DNA of 64,000 bases from a virus. Its lineage: Duplodnaviria; Heunggongvirae; Uroviricota; Caudoviricetes. The stretch lies in the IMG/VR virus record IMGVR_UViG_3300032315_000486; one strand, written 5' to 3'. The notes beneath the pieces were generated by a model. The model did not search any database and had not been told where the DNA came from. It was given only the letters and a program-made list of their open reading frames with translations. The position numbers and the translations under genes are program-made. Numbering within the stretch: the stretch's first letter is position 1; every line of letters starts with the position of its first letter. This document shows positions 4,709-28,678 of the stretch, in pieces.

Positions 4709-4785
4709 ACTCCGGTAGCTCAATTGGTCAGAGCTGAGTGCTCATAACGCTTAGGTTGGGGGTTCGAGTCCCTCTCGGAGTACCA
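4709..4785 (+). tRNA. tRNA-Met/Ile2 (anticodon CAT), copy 1
   Basis: acceptor actccgg/tcggagt, anticodon loop ctcataa, T-arm gggggttcgagtccctc, CCA. Confidence 0.75.
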
Positions 4786-5906: not shown

Positions 5907-5982
5907 GGGGTATTAGTGATAAAAGGTAGCACATCACACTTGCAATGTGAAAGAAACGGGGCGGTACCGTTATACTCCACCA
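5907..5982 (+). tRNA. tRNA-Ala-like (anticodon TGC) with G3:U70 but non-canonical T-loop
   Basis: acceptor ggggtat/atactcc gives G3:U70; anticodon stem tcaca/tgtga loop cttgcaa; T-stem aacgg/ccgtt but T-loop GGCGGTA; CCA encoded; only Ala decoder in the set. Confidence 0.45.
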
Positions 5983-10118: not shown

Positions 10119-10280
10119 ATGGCACTCCTAGTTAAAGAACGAAAAGCTCTAGAACAGTTAGAACAAGCATTTGTTCGATACTATGAGCAAATTCTTCATT
10201 TAGATCTAGCGGTTGACCAATCAAAAACTGTAGAAGAACGGCTGTTATTTTTAGCAGTCGAACTAAATACAGTACAATGA
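10119..10280 (+). CDS. hypothetical small protein (53 aa)
   Basis: ORF below the 60-aa track threshold, directly downstream of the promoter; 3' end overlaps tRNA. Confidence 0.3.
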   Translation: MALLVKERKALEQLEQAFVRYYEQILHLDLAVDQSKTVEERLLFLAVELNTVQ

Positions 10281-10350
10281 TTATTGCGGGGTAGAGAAGC
10301 GGCATCTCGTTTGGCTCATAACCAAAAGATCGTGGGTTCGAGTCCCACCC
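10275..10350 (+). tRNA. tRNA-Met (anticodon CAT)-like, copy 2, irregular acceptor
   Basis: anticodon stem tttgg/ccaaa loop ctcataa; D gaga/tctc; T-arm gtgggttcgagtcccac perfect; acceptor pairing imperfect or 8-bp. Confidence 0.55.
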
Positions 10351-10433
10351 AACGCAACCAAAGTTAGGTGCTGCTACTTGAAATGCAGCTAAGTCACCTG
10401 AATACGAAGGTAGAGCCTAAATTAACTTTTCAC

Positions 10434-12192: not shown

Positions 12193-12195
12193 AAA

Positions 12196-12270
12196 ATTTG
12201 TAAGCTCGCTGGTAGAGCATTTGACTTCTAATCAAACTGAGCCGTTCGATTCGGCACAAAACCCCTGATT
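12196..12270 (+). pseudogene. degenerate tRNA-Arg(TCT)-like element
   Basis: D-arm agctcgctggtagagca, anticodon stem tttga/tcaaa loop cttctaa, T-arm gccgttcgattcggc (4 bp), but acceptor stem does not pair and CCA absent. Confidence 0.35.
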
Positions 12271-14582: not shown

Positions 14583-14658
14583 GGTTCTATAGCACTACGG
14601 TAGTGCAGCCGTGCCCTAACACGGTCGGAAGCAGGTTCAATTCCTGTTAGGACCACCA
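14583..14658 (+). tRNA. tRNA with non-canonical anticodon arm (8-nt or 6-nt loop; candidate anticodon CCT or CTA)
   Basis: acceptor ggttcta/taggacc, D gcac-tacggta-gtgc, T-arm gcaggttcaattcctgt, CCA; anticodon region gccgtgccctaacacggt folds only as 5-bp stem + 8-nt loop or 6-bp stem + 6-nt loop. Confidence 0.55.
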
Positions 14659-15830: not shown

Positions 15831-16016
15831 TTGGAATCCCACAAAAGATCAATCGTCAAGTCTATAACTTGGCGAGTCATTGCCACGCTAATTGCAGCCT
15901 GGTGGGTGGGATTTCAGGTAGCTATTATAATGAATATAGTCCAGACTGTAGCGTACTACATACACGAACGTGTGTGGGTGCGTATCAATTGGGGCATGAA
16001 TAAGGGCACTCAGTAA
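15831..16016 (+). CDS. small membrane protein
   Basis: 61 aa, hydrophobic (ITWRVIATLIAAWWVGFQVAIIMNIV). Confidence 0.35.
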   Translation: MESHKRSIVKSITWRVIATLIAAWWVGFQVAIIMNIVQTVAYYIHERVWVRINWGMNKGTQ

Positions 16017-16189
16017 AGAGTCAAGATTGACAGCGCCACAAATCACATAGTGTGCGGTGATAATAAAGACGTTAGTCTGCGGAGTGTGAATCTCCAAGTG
16101 TCTACCAATTATGTCGGTACTCTTCGCGCGAAGATTGAGCTAAGTTAATGTGATAATCTGAAGCCGACAGCAACTAATAGAATCATTAC

Positions 16190-16236
16190 AGCAACTAATA
16201 AAAATGACTGGTTCGATTCCAGTACTCCCCACCACT
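16190..16236 (+). pseudogene. tRNA 3'-half remnant (T-arm + acceptor strand + CCA only)
   Basis: actggttcgattccagt-actcccc-a-cca; no complementary 5' acceptor (ggggagt), D- or anticodon arm upstream. Confidence 0.35.
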
Positions 16237-16535
16237 GGTACATTGGCTGAGGTGCGTAGCTCTTCGGAGTAGAAATCAGCATAACAGTGTATCTTTGACG
16301 GGAAGTATGGCAAGGTGCCGCTAAGAGCAATCTTAGCTTCCCCAATGATTCTGACAATTTTGAGGTAGGGAAAGCGTGCTATGCTAGCTAGATAGTACGG
16401 CAGAGTAATTAACTGCAAACGGAGCATGGGCACCTAAGAGGGTTATTCCTCTTGGCAGATACCGCACCGGCCTCAACTTAATTAATCTTGCTTGATAGTG
16501 TTTGATCTGTTATCTTGTATAAAAGGAGATAAATC

Positions 16536-17135
16536 GTGATCCACGTTCAAGGCAAAATTCCTCGCACAGTGTATGTAGCGTTCAGCGGCGGAGTTGACAG
16601 TGTTGCTGTTGTAGATTTTCTACGCCGCAACCACACCGTAGTTCTAGCGCACATCAACCACGGAAATGAAATTTCCTCGGCGGAGCAGGCTTTTGTAGAG
16701 CAGTTTGCTGAGAATCGTCAACTCCCTTTGCTACTCAAGCAAGGCAACGCTGATAAGCCGGCCGATGAATCTTGGGAAGAACACTGGCGTAATGAGCGTT
16801 ACCGTTTCCTGCATACTATTAACGGCACAGTAATCACTTGCCATCACCTCGACGATTGTGTTGAGACTTGGTTGTGGAATATGTGTAACGGGCGTGACCA
16901 GACTATCGCCTATCGTAATGTTAATGTAATTCGTCCATTCCGTACCACAAGAAAATCTGAATTTGTTGACTGGTATCAACGCAAGCAGCTCGCGTGGTAT
17001 GAAGATCCTACCAATGCTAACCCACAATTCGCTGTTCGCAACTACATCCGTCACGTGATGGTTCCTGCTGCAATGAAGGTTAACCCCGGCATTCACACTA
17101 CAATTCGCAATAAGCTGTTGCAAGAAAAAATTTAA
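16536..17135 (+). CDS. tilS: tRNA(Ile)-lysidine synthetase-like PP-loop ATPase (short TilS-like)
   Basis: GTG start with aaaggagataaatc RBS; PP-loop VAFSGGVDSVAV; CHHLDDCVETWLWNMCNG....IRPF matches the TilS motif HLDDQAET..LRLLRG....IRPLL. Confidence 0.65.
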   Translation: MIHVQGKIPRTVYVAFSGGVDSVAVVDFLRRNHTVVLAHINHGNEISSAEQAFVEQFAENRQLPLLLKQGNADKPADESWEEHWRNERYRFLHTINGTVITCHHLDDCVETWLWNMCNGRDQTIAYRNVNVIRPFRTTRKSEFVDWYQRKQLAWYEDPTNANPQFAVRNYIRHVMVPAAMKVNPGIHTTIRNKLLQEKI

Positions 17136-17170
17136 AATTGTTCTTGCCTATCCGCTGAAAATAACCTATA
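17130..17170 (+). promoter_or_regulatory. sigma70-like promoter with UP element (tttaaaattgttcTTGCCT-N17-TATATT)
   Basis: same tttaaaattgttcttgcc module as at 21735. Confidence 0.5.
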
Positions 17171-17171
17171 T

Positions 17172-17350
17172 TATATTTAACAAGGCAAAAGCCTTTTGGA
17201 GAGAAAAACAATGAACACCTGCATGATTAAGACCGAGCGTTTTTATCACAGCTCCAGTGGAGGGGCAAACTCGTGAAATGATAATTTCACCTGTTTGTTA
17301 GTGTTTGTTTACACCCCCTAGAATCTGAATGGTTTTAGGGGGTTTTTTAT
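17172..17350 (+). ncRNA. candidate small RNA (~180 nt) bounded by promoter and intrinsic terminator
   Basis: only a 20-aa ORF inside; hairpin aaggcaaaagcctt near 5' end; terminator acacccccta-N-tagggggttttttatt at 17323-17350. Confidence 0.35.
17323..17350 (+). terminator. rho-independent terminator
   Basis: cccccta...tagggggtttttta. Confidence 0.5.
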
Positions 17351-17351
17351 T

Positions 17352-17427
17352 GGTCGGGTGCTAGAATTGGTTATAGCGCGGATTGCAAATCCGTTGTATG
17401 TGGGTTCGAGTCCCATCCCTACCTCCA
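17352..17427 (+). tRNA. tRNA-Cys (anticodon GCA)
   Basis: acceptor ggtcggg/ccctacc (one mismatch), anticodon stem gcgga/tccgt loop ttgcaaa, T-arm gtgggttcgagtcccat, CCA. Confidence 0.65.
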
Positions 17428-17443
17428 AATTTAGGAGACTGTT

Positions 17444-17614
17444 ATGATAGCTTGGATTTACACTTACGACCTGGACAAATACATGCACCTGATGCGTGAT
17501 GAAGGATGTGACCCATCGGTAATTTCTCAGACTGACGATAAAAGTCATGTCGAAATGACCCTCAACGTAGCTTCCGAATGGAATATGTTGGGTCTCTGGT
17601 ACGAAATGGGCTAA
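17444..17614 (+). CDS. hypothetical small protein (56 aa)
   Basis: ttaggagactgttATG strong RBS, between two tRNAs. Confidence 0.45.
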   Translation: MIAWIYTYDLDKYMHLMRDEGCDPSVISQTDDKSHVEMTLNVASEWNMLGLWYEMG

Positions 17615-17622
17615 ATAATACG

Positions 17623-17697
17623 GTGTTGTAGCTCAGCTGGTAGAGCAGTAGACTCATATTCTATTGGTCGTAGGTTCAAGTCCTACCAACACCACCA
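17623..17697 (+). tRNA. tRNA-Met/Ile2 (anticodon CAT), copy 3
   Basis: acceptor ggtgttg/caacacc perfect, D gctcagctggtagagc, anticodon stem gtaga/tctat loop ctcatat, T-loop ttcaagt, CCA. Confidence 0.75.
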
Positions 17698-19821: not shown

Positions 19822-19907
19822 TGTCGTATACTTCAGTTGGTAGAAGGCTGAGCTGATAACTCAGATGTCACTGGTTCGATCCCAGTTGCGACAACCAATG
19901 ATAACTT
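19822..19907 (+). tRNA. tRNA-Ile (anticodon GAT)
   Basis: acceptor tgtcgta/tgcgaca, D cttcagttggtagaagg, anticodon stem ctgag/ctcag loop ctgataa, T-arm actggttcgatcccagt, CCA. Confidence 0.75.
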
Positions 19908-22356: not shown

Positions 22357-23778
22357 ATGAACACTTTTGCTAACGCAGTCCTAAATGACAGCATCACTCC
22401 TCGTACCGCTAATGGTATGCGTGCACACGCTACCACTTCTAGTGCAGTACTCGATCTATTCGGTATGATCGGCTCGGCTCGTGGCAAAGATGTGTCACAG
22501 CATTTCATGGCTGCTATCGGCGAGAACGAAGAACTTGCCGTTCGCACTCTGCTTTGGGCTCGTGACATCCGTGGAGGTGCTGGTGAGCGCCAGACATTCC
22601 GTAATCTGCTAGCTGCCTTAGAGCGCGCTAATGCTTCTCTTGCTGGCCGTATCATGCACAAAGTTCCAGAGCTTGGTCGCTGGGACGACTTGTTCACTTA
22701 CGCTGAACACTTCAACCGTACTGCTGCTATGGAGATGATTCGTCAAGCCCTTGCGGACAATAATGGTCTGTGTGCAAAGTGGATGCCTCGTAAGGGTCCA
22801 GTTGCTGTTGAGTTGACTCGGTTCCTTGGCCTATCGCCTAAAGCTTATCGTAAGCTGATAGTTGGCCTGACTCAGGTTGTTGAAACTCAAATGTGTGCTA
22901 AGACTTGGACTGAGATTAATTTCTCACACGTTCCTAGCGTTGCTAGCGCTCGCTACCAGAAGGCATTTGGTCGTAACGCCTCCGAAGCGTATACTCGTTA
23001 TATTCAGGAGCTTCAGAAGCCGCAGGCTGAGCGTGATCCTAAGGTCAAAATCAACGCAAGTGCAGTTTACCCACATGACGTTGTAAAAAGCGTCGCTAAT
23101 GGTAATGCTGCTGTAGCCAACGAACAGTGGAATGCTCTTCCAAACTACGTTGGCGATGCAATGGTATTCCCCATGGTTGACGTTTCTGGTTCGATGGGTA
23201 GCCTAGCATACTCTCGTCCTGGCCACGTTCAGCCAATCGAAGTTGCCGTTGCTCTGGGTCTATACCTTAGTGCCAAGAACTCCGGTCCTTTCAAAGACCT
23301 GTTCCAGACTTTCTCTGGTCGTCCGACTATGGTAAAGCTGACTGGTTCTTTGAGTGATCGTATTCGTACCATGAGCACTGCTCATTGGGAAATGAATACT
23401 AATCTGCACGCTGCTTTTGATCAGATTCTGCAAGTTGCTGTAAACGGTAACGCAGATCCTGCAGATATGCCTCAGATTCTTCTGATCCTTAGCGATATGC
23501 AGTTTGACCGTTGCACTCGCTATGACGACAGTGCGCTGCAGATGATTGCTCGCAAGTACGAGCAGGCTGGATATGCGATGCCAAAGATCGTGTTCTGGAA
23601 TCTGAACTCTGGCTACGGTAACGTACCTGTTCAGTTCGATAGTCGCGGTACTGCACACGTCTCTGGTTTTAGCCCAGCAATCATGAATAGCGTTCTGGCA
23701 AACGATCTTGAAGACTTCACGCCTTACAATGTAATGCTGAAGACTCTGATGGACGATCGCTATGCTTTCGCTGCATGA
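22357..23778 (+). CDS. Ro60/Rsr-like TROVE + vWA (MIDAS) domain protein (DUF2828-like)
   Basis: N-terminal LDLFGMIGSARGKD and LLWARDIRGGAGERQTFRNLL resemble TROVE motifs (FLCFGSEGG.., LLYARDERG.G.G.R..FR); MIDAS DVSGSMG plus downstream LILSDMQFD. Confidence 0.5.
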   Translation: MNTFANAVLNDSITPRTANGMRAHATTSSAVLDLFGMIGSARGKDVSQHFMAAIGENEELAVRTLLWARDIRGGAGERQTFRNLLAALERANASLAGRIMHKVPELGRWDDLFTYAEHFNRTAAMEMIRQALADNNGLCAKWMPRKGPVAVELTRFLGLSPKAYRKLIVGLTQVVETQMCAKTWTEINFSHVPSVASARYQKAFGRNASEAYTRYIQELQKPQAERDPKVKINASAVYPHDVVKSVANGNAAVANEQWNALPNYVGDAMVFPMVDVSGSMGSLAYSRPGHVQPIEVAVALGLYLSAKNSGPFKDLFQTFSGRPTMVKLTGSLSDRIRTMSTAHWEMNTNLHAAFDQILQVAVNGNADPADMPQILLILSDMQFDRCTRYDDSALQMIARKYEQAGYAMPKIVFWNLNSGYGNVPVQFDSRGTAHVSGFSPAIMNSVLANDLEDFTPYNVMLKTLMDDRYAFAA

Positions 23779-23905
23779 GAGGTTCGGCCACTGGCTGCAA
23801 CAACGATTAATGTCTACGCCCCGACAAGGGCGTAGACGACCCCAACCAAACAAAGATTTAATCTTAACTCGCATCCTTCTTAAAATTTTAGCCCAGGAGT
23901 AATAG

Positions 23906-25946: not shown

Positions 25947-27020
25947 ATGCGTGATGCACTAGTATTTATCGGTCGGTTCCAGCCGTTTCACAATGGACAC
26001 AAAGCAGTTATTGATGCTGCACTTGAGCAAGCTAAAGAGGTAGTTGTAGTAGTCGGCTCTAGCTTTGCTGCTCGAAATATACGAAATCCATTTACGTTCC
26101 AAGAACGCAAGGCTATGATTGAAGTCTGTTTCAACAAACCACAGCACTTTGCTTATGAGGGTGCTCAAGGTCGAGTGAAGACGTCTCGCGTAAAAGTTGT
26201 TCCAGTCTCTGACTTCCCGTATGACGACAATAAATGGGTCAATGCAATTCAACGTATTGTTGATGTGACTGTTCCTGATGCACAAGATGTTGGTCTGATT
26301 GGTCACTCAAAAGACAGCACTAGTTACTACCTGAACATCTTCCCTCGCTGGAAGAACCATATTGAAGTTGATGATGTTGGTGGTATTAATGCTACTGACA
26401 TTCGTAAGCTGATGTTTGAAGGTAACGACGCTGGTACAAGCTCGCACTTTATTTCTACAATGATGCCTAAAGAAGCTCACGGAAAGATGTGTGACGTTAT
26501 CAATCAGAATGCCAAGATCGGCGGTGCATGGGACACTATTTGCAAAGAATACCAAATGGTACGAAAATACAAAGAAGCGTGGAAGGCCGCTCCGTTCCCT
26601 CCTACTTTCATGACTGTTGACGCTGTTGTTATTCAAAGCGGTCATATTCTTCTTGTAAAGCGTGGCGACATGCCTGGCAAAGGTCAATGGGCACTGCCAG
26701 GTGGTTTCTTGAACCAAGACGAAACTATGCTTGACGGGGCTATTCGTGAACTGAAAGAAGAAACCAAGATCAAAGTTCCTGCTCCGGTTTTGAAAGGTTC
26801 TATCAAAGCTTCCAAGACTTTTGACGCTCCTAACCGTTCTACTCGTGGCCGTACTATCACTCAAGCATTCTTGATTGACCTTGGTGTTGGCGAGCTTCCA
26901 AAGGTTAAAGGTTCTGATGATGCTGAAAAAGCATTCTGGGTTCCTTTCAAGGATGTGAAGCAAGAGAAGATGTTTGAAGACCACTTCCACATCATCGACA
27001 ACTTTATCAACATTGGATAA
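25947..27020 (+). CDS. natV: bifunctional NMN adenylyltransferase / Nudix ADP-ribose pyrophosphatase (NatV-type)
   Basis: N-terminal FIGRFQPFHNGH (nucleotidyltransferase HxGH); C-terminal Nudix box GGFLNQDETMLDGAIRELKEETKI. Confidence 0.8.
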   Translation: MRDALVFIGRFQPFHNGHKAVIDAALEQAKEVVVVVGSSFAARNIRNPFTFQERKAMIEVCFNKPQHFAYEGAQGRVKTSRVKVVPVSDFPYDDNKWVNAIQRIVDVTVPDAQDVGLIGHSKDSTSYYLNIFPRWKNHIEVDDVGGINATDIRKLMFEGNDAGTSSHFISTMMPKEAHGKMCDVINQNAKIGGAWDTICKEYQMVRKYKEAWKAAPFPPTFMTVDAVVIQSGHILLVKRGDMPGKGQWALPGGFLNQDETMLDGAIRELKEETKIKVPAPVLKGSIKASKTFDAPNRSTRGRTITQAFLIDLGVGELPKVKGSDDAEKAFWVPFKDVKQEKMFEDHFHIIDNFINIG

Positions 27021-27247: not shown

Positions 27248-28678
27248 ATGAAAACAGTACTACATCTTATCTCAGCTATCCTTCGTACCGATAGCTACAA
27301 ATTTTCTCAGTGGGTTCAGTATCCAGCAGGTACTACTCACATTTCTTCGTACATTGAAAGCCGCGGTGGCGAAGATGAGAGTGTGTTCTTTGGTCTGCAA
27401 GCGTTTATGAAAGACTATATGACCACGCCTATCACAATGGCGGACGTAGATCGTGCAGAACGTATTGTTCTAGCACACGGTCTACCTTTCAACCGCGAAG
27501 GTTGGGAAATTATCGTAAACGAATATAACGGTATGTTGCCAGTGCTGGTAGAAGCAGTACCAGAAGGTACGGTTATGCCAACCCATAACGTACAGGTTCA
27601 GGTAGTTAATACAGACCCGCGCCTGTGGTGGTTGACTTCGTACTTGGAAACAGCTATGCTTCGTGGTGTGTGGTATCCTTCTACTGTGGCGACGAAGTCG
27701 CGCAAGATGAAGAAAATCATCAAGCGTGCTCTTGAAGAAACATCTGACGTTTCAGTAGAAGCTCAGATCAATTTCAAGCTCCATGACTTTGGTGCTCGTG
27801 GCGCATCGTCTAGTGAAACTGCGATGCTCGGCGGCATGGCTCACCTAGTAAACTTTATGGGTACTGATACTGCCGAAGCTCTTGTAGGTGTTATGGAATA
27901 CTACAACACTGATGAGGTTGTTGGGTTTAGCATCCCAGCTAGTGAACATAGCACTATCACTTCTTGGGGTCGTGCACATGAAACTGATGCTTATGACAAC
28001 ATGATCGACCAGTTCGCAGGTGAAGGCAAGCTGTATGCTTGCGTATCTGATAGCTTCGACATCTATCACGCAGCTGGCCATCTATGGGGTGAAGTTCTTC
28101 GTGAGAAGATAATCAATTCAGGCGGCACCTTGGTGGTACGTCCTGATAGTGGTGATCCCGAAACTGTACCTGTAGAGATTGTCAAAATCCTTGCTAGCAA
28201 GTTTGGAACTACTACAAACTCGAAAGGGTTTAAGGTTCTGCACCCAAGCGTTAGAGTTATTCAAGGCGATGGTATCAACGAACACTCGCTACCTAAGATT
28301 CTAGAAAATCTGAAAACGGCAGGGTTCTCGGCAGAAAACATCACATTCGGTATGGGCGGCGGGTTGCTACAAGCTTGGAACCGTGATACTCTCAAGTATG
28401 CAATGAAGGCATCAGCTATTCGTGTTAATGAGAGTGATTGGGTTGGATTCTCAAAAGACCCAGTAACTGATCACGGTAAGCGTTCTAAAGAAGGCCGTAT
28501 TGCTCTAGTCAAAGAAGCTGGATTTGGTATTGCTCCATACATCCGCACCGTTCCAGCAGACTATTTCTGGGAGCGTCCAAGCGCAGAAAACCTGTTGCAG
28601 CCCGTGTTCATGAACGGCGTTATACTCGTTGAAGATACGTTTGAAAACATTCGTGAACGTGCAAAGGAAGGTGTGTGA
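27248..28678 (+). CDS. nadV: nicotinamide phosphoribosyltransferase (NadV-type NAMPT)
   Basis: 476 aa; TDSYKFSQW, HDFGARG, GTD....EHST blocks characteristic of NAMPT/NadV. Confidence 0.85.
   Translation: MKTVLHLISAILRTDSYKFSQWVQYPAGTTHISSYIESRGGEDESVFFGLQAFMKDYMTTPITMADVDRAERIVLAHGLPFNREGWEIIVNEYNGMLPVLVEAVPEGTVMPTHNVQVQVVNTDPRLWWLTSYLETAMLRGVWYPSTVATKSRKMKKIIKRALEETSDVSVEAQINFKLHDFGARGASSSETAMLGGMAHLVNFMGTDTAEALVGVMEYYNTDEVVGFSIPASEHSTITSWGRAHETDAYDNMIDQFAGEGKLYACVSDSFDIYHAAGHLWGEVLREKIINSGGTLVVRPDSGDPETVPVEIVKILASKFGTTTNSKGFKVLHPSVRVIQGDGINEHSLPKILENLKTAGFSAENITFGMGGGLLQAWNRDTLKYAMKASAIRVNESDWVGFSKDPVTDHGKRSKEGRIALVKEAGFGIAPYIRTVPADYFWERPSAENLLQPVFMNGVILVEDTFENIRERAKEGV

Follow-up and report, generated by a model that had tools for sequence, protein, structure and literature searches.

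Whether the catalytic domain of the lysidine synthetase TilS can act as an enzyme in its own right is the question raised by a short gene in a 64,000-nucleotide stretch of viral DNA (Caudoviricetes; IMG/VR record IMGVR_UViG_3300032315_000486), referred to here as the window. TilS is regarded as bacteria-specific and essential, and its hallmark is its appended domains, which read the body of the tRNA up to 60-70 Å away from the active site, with tRNA-Ile2 being modified and tRNA-Met spared. A first-pass annotation, made from the sequence alone, noticed that a 199-residue protein encoded in the window (hereafter mini-TilS) has the ATP pyrophosphatase loop (PP-loop) SGGVDS and an HLDD..ET motif, lacks the C-terminal tRNA-binding domains, and is accompanied by three tRNA genes with a CAT anticodon; it was proposed that the phage supplies its own modification of tRNA-Ile2 in favor of AUA decoding. 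We followed this up computationally in the window and in related loci, and found the proposal to be essentially right: the interpretation is supported, with a correction as to which tRNA is the likely substrate.

Mini-TilS is the catalytic N-domain of the TilS family. Both motifs were located in the protein (Table 1), and TIGR02432, the curated equivalog model for the TilS N-domain, matched it with 110.5 bits against a cutoff of 93.6 (E=9e-32), over model positions 2-189 of 189; Pfam PF01171 matched at E=1.9e-30. When the Protein Data Bank was searched with the family profile, the sole matches at E<=1e-5 were three solved TilS proteins, over their N-domains (1wy5, 1ni5 and 3a2k). The PP-loop aligns with the SGGVDS of A. 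aeolicus TilS, and HHLDDCVET aligns with HHLNDLLET, QHLDDQCET and HHGDDQVET of the three solved proteins. The TilS motifs beyond the PP-loop (R..RY, HHLxD..ET, RP, ED.xN and RN.IRH) are all there, invariant or near-invariant, and align to the same three proteins. An alignment of 50 family members at ~50% identity contains 31 invariant columns, which include the PP-loop, R85, R88, H103, D107, E110, R133-P134, D157, N160, R168-N169 and R172, and these residues align with residues conserved in all three crystallized TilS. An invariant catalytic pattern at such a level of identity argues for selection for catalysis, and not for a decaying fragment. An AlphaFold2 model of mini-TilS, built from the alignment of 50 family members, has a predicted local distance difference test (pLDDT) score of 94.6 and superimposes on 2e89, the A. 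aeolicus TilS with ATP, Mg and lysine, with a template modeling (TM) score of 0.85 and a root-mean-square deviation of 2.0 Å. In the fold search, TilS structures took ranks 1-5 (TM 0.82-0.85 to 2e21, 1wy5 and 2e89), and TtuA was the next structural neighbor.

The first-pass annotation had named a grouping with QueC or another PP-loop family as the outcome that would refute it, and this outcome was not obtained when those families were tried. QueC (PF06508) scored 13.2 bits against a cutoff of 22, over residues 14-63 only, its structure 2pg3 ranked 40th in the fold search (TM 0.44), and phage QueC models reached TM<=0.5 against mini-TilS; a weak match to the 'QueC-like' phrog_1550 (E=5.8e-6) likewise covers residues 11-93 only. 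TtcA scored 14.6 bits against a cutoff of 272 and TtuA matched at E=0.01; the three-Cys Fe-S motif of TtcA/TtuA is absent, with C108 near-invariant, C102 less conserved and no third conserved Cys. LarE (20.4 bits), MnmA and PAPS reductase were all far under their curated thresholds. Elsewhere in the window, a second PP-loop-like tblastn match at ~61.2-61.4 kb (E=0.13) was discarded, there being no plausible open reading frame (ORF) at that place.

The C-terminal tRNA-binding domains are lacking, as had been read from the sequence. No Pfam match besides PF01171 was found in mini-TilS, that is, neither PF09179 (the TilS substrate-binding domain, C-terminal domain 1, CTD1) nor PF11734 (TilS_C, CTD2), and a bacterial TilS analyzed as a control (Lysinibacillus, 468 aa) showed all three domains. 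The protein ends at a point corresponding to about residue 228 of the 317-aa A. aeolicus TilS, and the full-length TilS equivalog NF007942 gave 56 bits against a cutoff of 606. Used as a probe, the N-domain of the Lysinibacillus protein matched the mini-TilS gene in 85 of 85 loci, while its C-terminal 244 residues found nothing in the window or in 86 loci (~1.3 Mb; best E 0.88). This negative probe, together with the non-coding DNA and strong terminator that follow the TAA stop codon, led us to reject a split or frameshifted full-length tilS. Nor was any conserved neighbor found among the family loci that might provide the missing domain in trans: two neighbor families (~193 aa and 87 aa) recur in 13-14 of the 42 lineages into which the 85 loci were grouped at 80% identity for the adjacency statistics given below, and both are absent from the window and have no TilS-domain match.

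This architecture is a fixed property of a family. The ORF is 190-213 aa long in all 85 fetched loci, and the best 120 matches among 5.8 billion proteins are 196-243 aa long with PF01171 only. A profile search of 1.84 billion cluster representatives returned 474 at E<=1e-30, and nearly all of the top 150 have lengths of 180-240 aa. Mini-TilS is found on at least 572 viral contigs of IMG/VR, many of them 100-342 kb in length, near-identical genes sit on metagenomic contigs of 60-171 kb, and the GC content of the loci spans 30-48%. When 185,579 prokaryotic species, each represented by a single genome, were scanned, about four close relatives were found, all on contigs from metagenome-assembled genomes (MAGs) of unrelated phyla, and two of these contigs bear phage-like tRNA banks. 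The family thus forms a large, conserved and essentially viral class of N-domain-only TilS, which appears to be undescribed in the literature that we searched. The annotation of a phage-encoded "TilS" is itself already known; what appears undescribed is that the class contradicts the current two-type description of TilS, according to which, in papers of 2025, every TilS has at least one appended domain (PMC11947777, PMC12514573).

Of those two types, mini-TilS is closer to Type II (A. aeolicus, 317 aa; 1WY5, 2E21 and 2E89): its best match both in sequence (E=2.4e-19 with the single protein and 7.8e-30 with the family profile) and in structure is of this type, and the two have the PP-loop and the HHLxD..ET, RP, ED.xN and RN.IRH motifs in common. 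The Type II enzyme, however, retains CTD1, the presumed reader of the anticodon stem, and has 4 more residues in the loop that joins the ET helix to the RP motif. Type I enzymes (E. coli MesJ/TilS, 1NI5, and the G. kaustophilus TilS-tRNA complex, 3A2K) share a homologous N-domain (E=1.8e-11 and 2.1e-9) and have both CTD1 and CTD2, whereas the phage protein has neither. Among viruses, the 'TilS' of the Pseudomonas jumbo phages MIJ3 and PA5oct (~203 aa) is a member of this short family, with 41% identity across 92% of the query, and co-occurs with three CAT tRNAs. The 2019 paper on these phages reported a putative TilS of unknown function, with speculation that it maintains host viability; it is silent on the missing domains and leaves the ileX-like tRNAs as tRNA-Met (PMC6892783). 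ORF84 of the Ralstonia jumbo phage RsoM2USA (349 aa) and the protein of the giant virus Dasosvirus (696 aa) are also virus-encoded TilS-like PP-loop proteins, but they keep appended regions, being of Type II-like length or longer, and fall outside the ~200-aa family.

Coupling of mini-TilS to CAT tRNA genes is frequent, though not universal. A tRNA gene lies within 1 kb of mini-TilS in 11 of the 42 lineages, and in nine of these 11 the nearest one has a CAT anticodon, against a baseline of 14% CAT among all tRNAs in these loci (binomial P ~1e-6, a statistic that is inflated because the lineages share ancestry and are not phylogenetically independent). Adding two MAG contigs (L088 and L090) raises this count to 11 among 13 lineages having a tRNA within that distance. 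The CAT tRNA ends 16-58 nt upstream of the TilS start codon in L009/L010, L014, L019, L020, L058 and L060, and in L088 and L090 it lies on the downstream side, starting 5 and 33 nt past the stop codon; since the adjacency occurs on either side of the gene, it points to repeated selection and not to a single inherited arrangement.

The identity of these tRNAs was assessed by a structure-aware parse. The TilS-adjacent CAT tRNAs have either G3-C70 or A3-U70; C4-G69/C5-G68 is frequent among them, C29-G41 is present in most, and the anticodon arm is ileX-like in several. G3/A3 and C4-G69/C5-G68 indicate tRNA-Ile(CAT) as opposed to Met or fMet (Silva et al., 2006; PMC1635315), and our Ile2-versus-Met calls use rules of this kind, derived from bacteria, in place of an isotype-specific classifier. 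The tRNAs of L088 and L090 combine the acceptor GGGCC with the arm CUCGA-CUCAUAA-UCGAU, that of L011 (+740 nt) has 81% identity to E. coli ileX, and all three are plainly ileX-like in sequence. Several phages have two different CAT tRNAs adjoining mini-TilS. In PA5oct (L095), two of the three "tRNA-Met" genes (267558-267631 and 268039-268112) have the ileX anticodon arm CGCGA-CUCAUAA-UCGCU and 81% identity to ileX, and the third is initiator-like. The physical coupling of a TilS gene to Ile2-type tRNA genes that are routinely mislabeled tRNA-Met appears undescribed in the searched literature, and many phage "tRNA-Met" annotations that adjoin mini-TilS are probably tRNA-Ile2. The GenBank 'tRNA-Met' of the Salmonella phage Kuttervirus Mooltan (L096) is, by its acceptor and anticodon-arm features, an ileX-type tRNA-Ile2 as well; the labels of Mooltan and PA5oct, taken together, point to systematic mis-annotation in phage records.

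In the window itself, a bank of 27-30 tRNA genes extends from 4.3 to 22 kb (ARAGORN, Rfam). The count of three CAT tRNAs in the first-pass annotation was correct, and two of its positions were not: the genes placed at 10275 and 17623 start at 10285 and 17622, 10 nt and 1 nt away. A tRNA with a UAU anticodon was found neither in the window nor in any family locus, and a phage tRNA can therefore read AUA only if its C34 is modified. In this respect the three CAT tRNAs differ from one another, and it is here that the proposal of a self-supplied Ile2 modification, upheld by the coupling across the family and the AUA-rich loci, had to be amended.

The best tRNA-Ile2 candidate is the gene at 4709. 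It has C4-G69, C5-G68, G27.U43, U12-A23, A38 and A73, of which C4-G69 and A38, along with G29-C41, are also found in the phage's own tRNA-Ile(GAU). Its D-loop AAUUGGU matches that of the tRNA L009_9575 and its T-stem is identical to it; tRNAs of the L009_9575 class lie 97-350 nt upstream of TilS in relatives, in the same Arg(UCU)-Leu(UAA) rare-codon group in which tRNA 4709 sits in the window, and tRNA 4709 clusters with the ileX-like L011 tRNAs. The tRNA at 17622, downstream of mini-TilS, is more likely a tRNA-Met. It has in common with L010_18619 and L028_18630 a GGUGNUG acceptor (GGUGUUG in 17622, with G4-C69), and those two genes adjoin initiator genes at a distance of 8 kb from TilS, in phages that both have separate TilS-adjacent CAT tRNAs. 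In L002/L008, its close orthologs combine G27-C43 with a variable loop, GGGUC, that resembles that of metT, and tRNA 17622 has U38, where E. coli ileX and every TilS-adjacent CAT tRNA have A38. In favor of Ile2 identity for tRNA 17622 are its 71-76% identity to E. coli ileX, its ileX-like body and its G27.U43 pair. Overall similarity cannot decide between the two genes, because E. coli metT and ileX themselves cluster together (unweighted pair group method with arithmetic mean, UPGMA), and BLAST of the CAT tRNAs against E. coli genomes and annotated phages returned generic tRNA bodies with mixed or wrong labels. On the sequence features, we consider it likely that tRNA 4709 is tRNA-Ile2 and tRNA 17622 the elongator tRNA-Met, in which case the phage would have a complete four-tRNA AUN set; alternatively, both are possibly TilS substrates, as with the two Ile2 copies of PA5oct.

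The third gene, at 10285, is initiator-like: it has A11-U24, G12-C23, G30-C40 and G31-C39, which are among the discriminators of Silva et al., 2006 (PMC1635315), and 79% identity to E. coli metZ. Its acceptor stem is odd: U1-A72 replaces the C1xA72 mismatch, positions 5-68 and 6-67 both form G.A mismatches, and one additional base follows the T-stem. This stem recurs in distant phages (L060:9118, L014:13421 and L002:2928), and because it is conserved in distantly related phages it is probably functional and not a product of decay.

Demand for AUA reading is visible in the coding sequences. AUA accounts for 13-14 per 1000 codons in the window, or 21-24% of its Ile codons, and in 39 lineages with mini-TilS its median frequency is 17.6 per 1000 codons and its median share of Ile codons 27%, at a median GC of 38%. 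The literature gives AUA frequencies of 4.9 per 1000 codons in E. coli, 2.9 in G. kaustophilus and 0.6 in B. cenocepacia (PMC12514573). In PA5oct, the only cultured system, AUA reaches 58 per 1000 codons and 57% of Ile, counted in 4,305 annotated codons, and its genome has ~33% GC against 66% GC for its host. Almost all of the 12 tRNAs of PA5oct read A-ending codons, and there is no tRNA-Ile(GAU) among them.

Taken together, these results suggest, by analogy with characterized TilS, that mini-TilS is likely to be a minimal lysidine synthetase that enables a phage tRNA-Ile2 to read AUA. The PP-loop catalytic domain, without CTD1 or CTD2, would bind the anticodon stem-loop of the phage tRNA(CAU); C2 of C34 would be adenylated with ATP, and lysine would then displace the adenylate to give lysidine, which would switch the tRNA from Met/AUG to Ile/AUA. 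The phage would in this way possess a whole AUA-decoding module, with tRNA-Ile2 (most likely 4709-4785) as one half and the enzyme that modifies it as the other, and the AUA-containing phage genes would be freed from limits set by the amount of host TilS or by its species-specific tRNA recognition. We infer the catalytic activity of the N-domain on its own, lysine as the amine, recognition through the anticodon arm only, and the choice of substrate tRNA in the window from the characterized enzymes and from the genomic setting. A precedent for the tRNA half is a T4-like vibriophage in which lysidine (k2C34) was detected on the phage tRNA(CAU) (PMC13191261); that phage likewise supplies an AUA reader that needs lysidine, but it brings the tRNA only and the host enzyme modifies it, whereas here the enzyme is phage-encoded too. 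Archaeal TiaS, the agmatidine synthetase, also modifies C34 of tRNA-Ile2 for AUA reading (PMC12069591), by an unrelated fold and mechanism and with no sequence relationship.

Several points weigh against mini-TilS being such an enzyme, beyond the shared ancestry behind the adjacency statistic and the bacterial origin of the isotype rules. In 19 of the 42 lineages there is no tRNA within 10 kb of mini-TilS, and in the window the gene is 11.7 kb from tRNA 4709, its nearest tRNAs being tRNA-Cys and the probable elongator tRNA-Met. AUA occurs 232 times in the window against 349 expected from base composition. The loop from the ET helix to the RP motif is 4-8 residues shorter than in solved TilS, which could alter amine binding. 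In B. cenocepacia TilS, deletion of CTD2 leaves weak activity and point mutants of CTD1 keep 7-70% activity (PMC11947777).

A more far-reaching form of the proposal, which is possible though we hold it only tentatively, is that enzyme and tRNA make up a self-contained, host-independent AUA cassette, in which the tRNA would be read solely via its anticodon stem-loop and the acceptor stems of the co-evolved phage tRNA-Ile2 would have drifted from the determinants of host TilS. Two other accounts accept the family assignment and are each unlikely. In one, the N-domain is not autonomous and works with host TilS or another host factor, so as to retarget or boost host lysidinylation toward the phage tRNA. 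Bacterial TilS is a homodimer, and a heterodimer with host TilS could form via the N-domain dimer interface; known TilS enzymes need their appended domains for efficient catalysis, and no phage-encoded substitute domain was found in the window or the family loci. The invariant catalytic motifs argue instead that the phage protein does the chemistry itself, and a conserved interface with diverse host TilS is unlikely because, as their GC span indicates, the phages that have this family evidently infect very dissimilar hosts. In the other account, the same PP-loop adenylation leads to a different product or target: another amine on C34, another cytidine or tRNA, or relaxed action on Met tRNAs. 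The missing recognition domains, the shortened ET-RP loop and the presence of two different CAT tRNAs by the gene in several phages would fit this, as would the acceptance of 5-aminovaleramide by E. coli TilS in vitro (PMC13602947). Opposed to it are the score above the TilS-specific equivalog-domain cutoff, the retention of all columns conserved across solved TilS, the specificity of the coupling for CAT-anticodon, Ile2-like tRNAs, and the AUA-rich coding, which is a direct need for lysidine.

It is very improbable that the gene is a decaying captured tilS fragment, or a decoy without catalytic activity, acting by binding of tRNA-Ile2 or inhibition of host TilS; the protein is shorter than every characterized TilS, but its length is constant across the 85 loci, its representatives are numerous (474) and diverse, its 31 invariant columns include the whole PP-loop, and its model is confident and compact. 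Least credible of all is membership in another PP-loop family (QueC, TtcA/TtuA, LarE or PAPS reductase), for which there are the low QueC, TtcA, LarE and phrog_1550 scores and the second structural place of TtuA, since all of these scores lie under curated cutoffs while TilS_N exceeds its own, TilS leads the fold search with QueC far behind, and the Cys triad is missing.

The coordinates of the mini-TilS gene and its signals are given in Table 1. The GTG start is supported by the family N-terminus MIxIQGKIPR, which is conserved from residue 1. Within the leader, positions 16203-16241 hold a perfect element resembling the 3' half of a tRNA (T-arm ACUGG-UUCGAUU-CCAGU, then ACUCCCC-A-CCA). A tRNA remnant directly upstream of TilS was considered and set aside, there being no recognizable 5' half, no call by ARAGORN or Rfam and no unusually stable fold. 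The slot between tRNA-Val and the TilS leader is a variable moron slot, occupied in the window (15831-16016) by a 61-aa DUF2061 membrane protein and in L002 (8923-9468) by a 181-aa methyltransferase (PF13578).

Table 1. Coordinates of the mini-TilS gene, its signals and motifs, and the tRNA genes discussed, in the numbering of the window.
Feature	Position	Strand	Remark
mini-TilS gene (199-aa N-domain-only TilS-family PP-loop ATPase)	16536-17135	+	GTG start, TAA stop at 17133-17135
Shine-Dalgarno-like AAGGAG	16523-16528	+	7 nt 5' of the GTG start, read from sequence
PP-loop SGGVDS, ATP pyrophosphatase motif, residues 17-22	16584-16601	+	S17, G18, G19, D21 and S22 invariant in 50 family members
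HHLDDCVET, residues 103-111	16842-16868	+	H103, L105, D106, D107 and E110 invariant in family
Non-coding leader 5' of TilS (~520 nt)	16017-16535	+	~90% identical in L002, L003, L004 and L008 (close relatives)
Intrinsic terminator-like hairpin and T-run, closing the TilS unit	17313-17350	+	13-bp stem; strong terminator at 17313-17343, inside the interval of the first-pass annotation
tRNA-Cys, unrelated to TilS	17352-17427		inside the interval of the first-pass annotation
tRNA(CAU), best tRNA-Ile2 candidate, probable TilS substrate	4709-4785	+	
Initiator-like tRNA(CAU), not a TilS substrate candidate	10285-10360	+	
tRNA(CAU), probable elongator tRNA-Met	17622-17697	+	487 nt downstream of TilS
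tRNA-Ile(GAU)	19822-19897	+	completes the AUN-box set of the phage

At 14583-14658, ARAGORN called a tRNA with a 6-nt anticodon loop (CCCUAA) to which no isotype was assigned, and relatives have tRNAs with a CUA anticodon, called 'Pyl' (L002:3487-3557 and L010:17423-17497); these may be suppressor or recoding tRNAs. Two weak tRNA-like genes, at 5907-5979 and 12195-12265, were found by Rfam only (40.9 and 37.8 bits). The latter is Arg(UCU) in relaxed ARAGORN and its L002/L008 ortholog reads 'Asn(AUU)', and both may be degenerate or unusual tRNAs. The tRNA bank of another TilS-bearing viral contig of 113 kb contains a tmRNA-like gene (L011:14841-15252) with the tag peptide ANDNIAPKDYALVA.

The window as a whole derives from a large virulent-type phage that encodes an NAD-dependent ligase, NAMPT, NMNAT/Nudix, a Ro-like protein and a dUTPase. 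Megablast of the window matched no phage record, and its ligase is ~32% identical to those of T5-like Vibrio and Enterobacter phages, with no close cultured relative. The NAD+ salvage pair NMNAT/Nudix (25947-27020) and NAMPT (27248-28678), along with the NAD-dependent DNA ligase (855-2558), is the combination described from large phages that provide NAD+ for themselves. The tRNA bank ends at a Ro60/TROVE-like RNA-binding protein (22357-23778; phrog_850, and PF11443/PF25043 in the L002 ortholog). Relaxed ARAGORN found tRNA-like structures in this gene (22667-22754) and just past it (23781-23851, minus strand), which might be a Y-RNA-like, tRNA-mimicking partner.

A phage-encoded mini-TilS with its tRNA would explain how AT-rich jumbo phages such as PA5oct use AUA for most of their Ile codons in a host that almost never uses it, and would show that phages can carry both a tRNA and the enzyme that switches its identity for one codon. 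How Type II enzymes, which have no CTD2, tell tRNA-Ile2 from tRNA-Met was left open in 2025 (PMC11947777), and a viral family reduced to the catalytic domain, and often found 5-33 nt from its presumed tRNA substrate, would be a natural minimal system for this question of Ile2/Met discrimination. Were the self-contained cassette to prove correct, mini-TilS would be a natural 'Type III' TilS that answers how tRNA-Ile2 and tRNA-Met are discriminated without a distal domain, and together with its tRNA it would be a compact orthogonal pair for use in codon reassignment.

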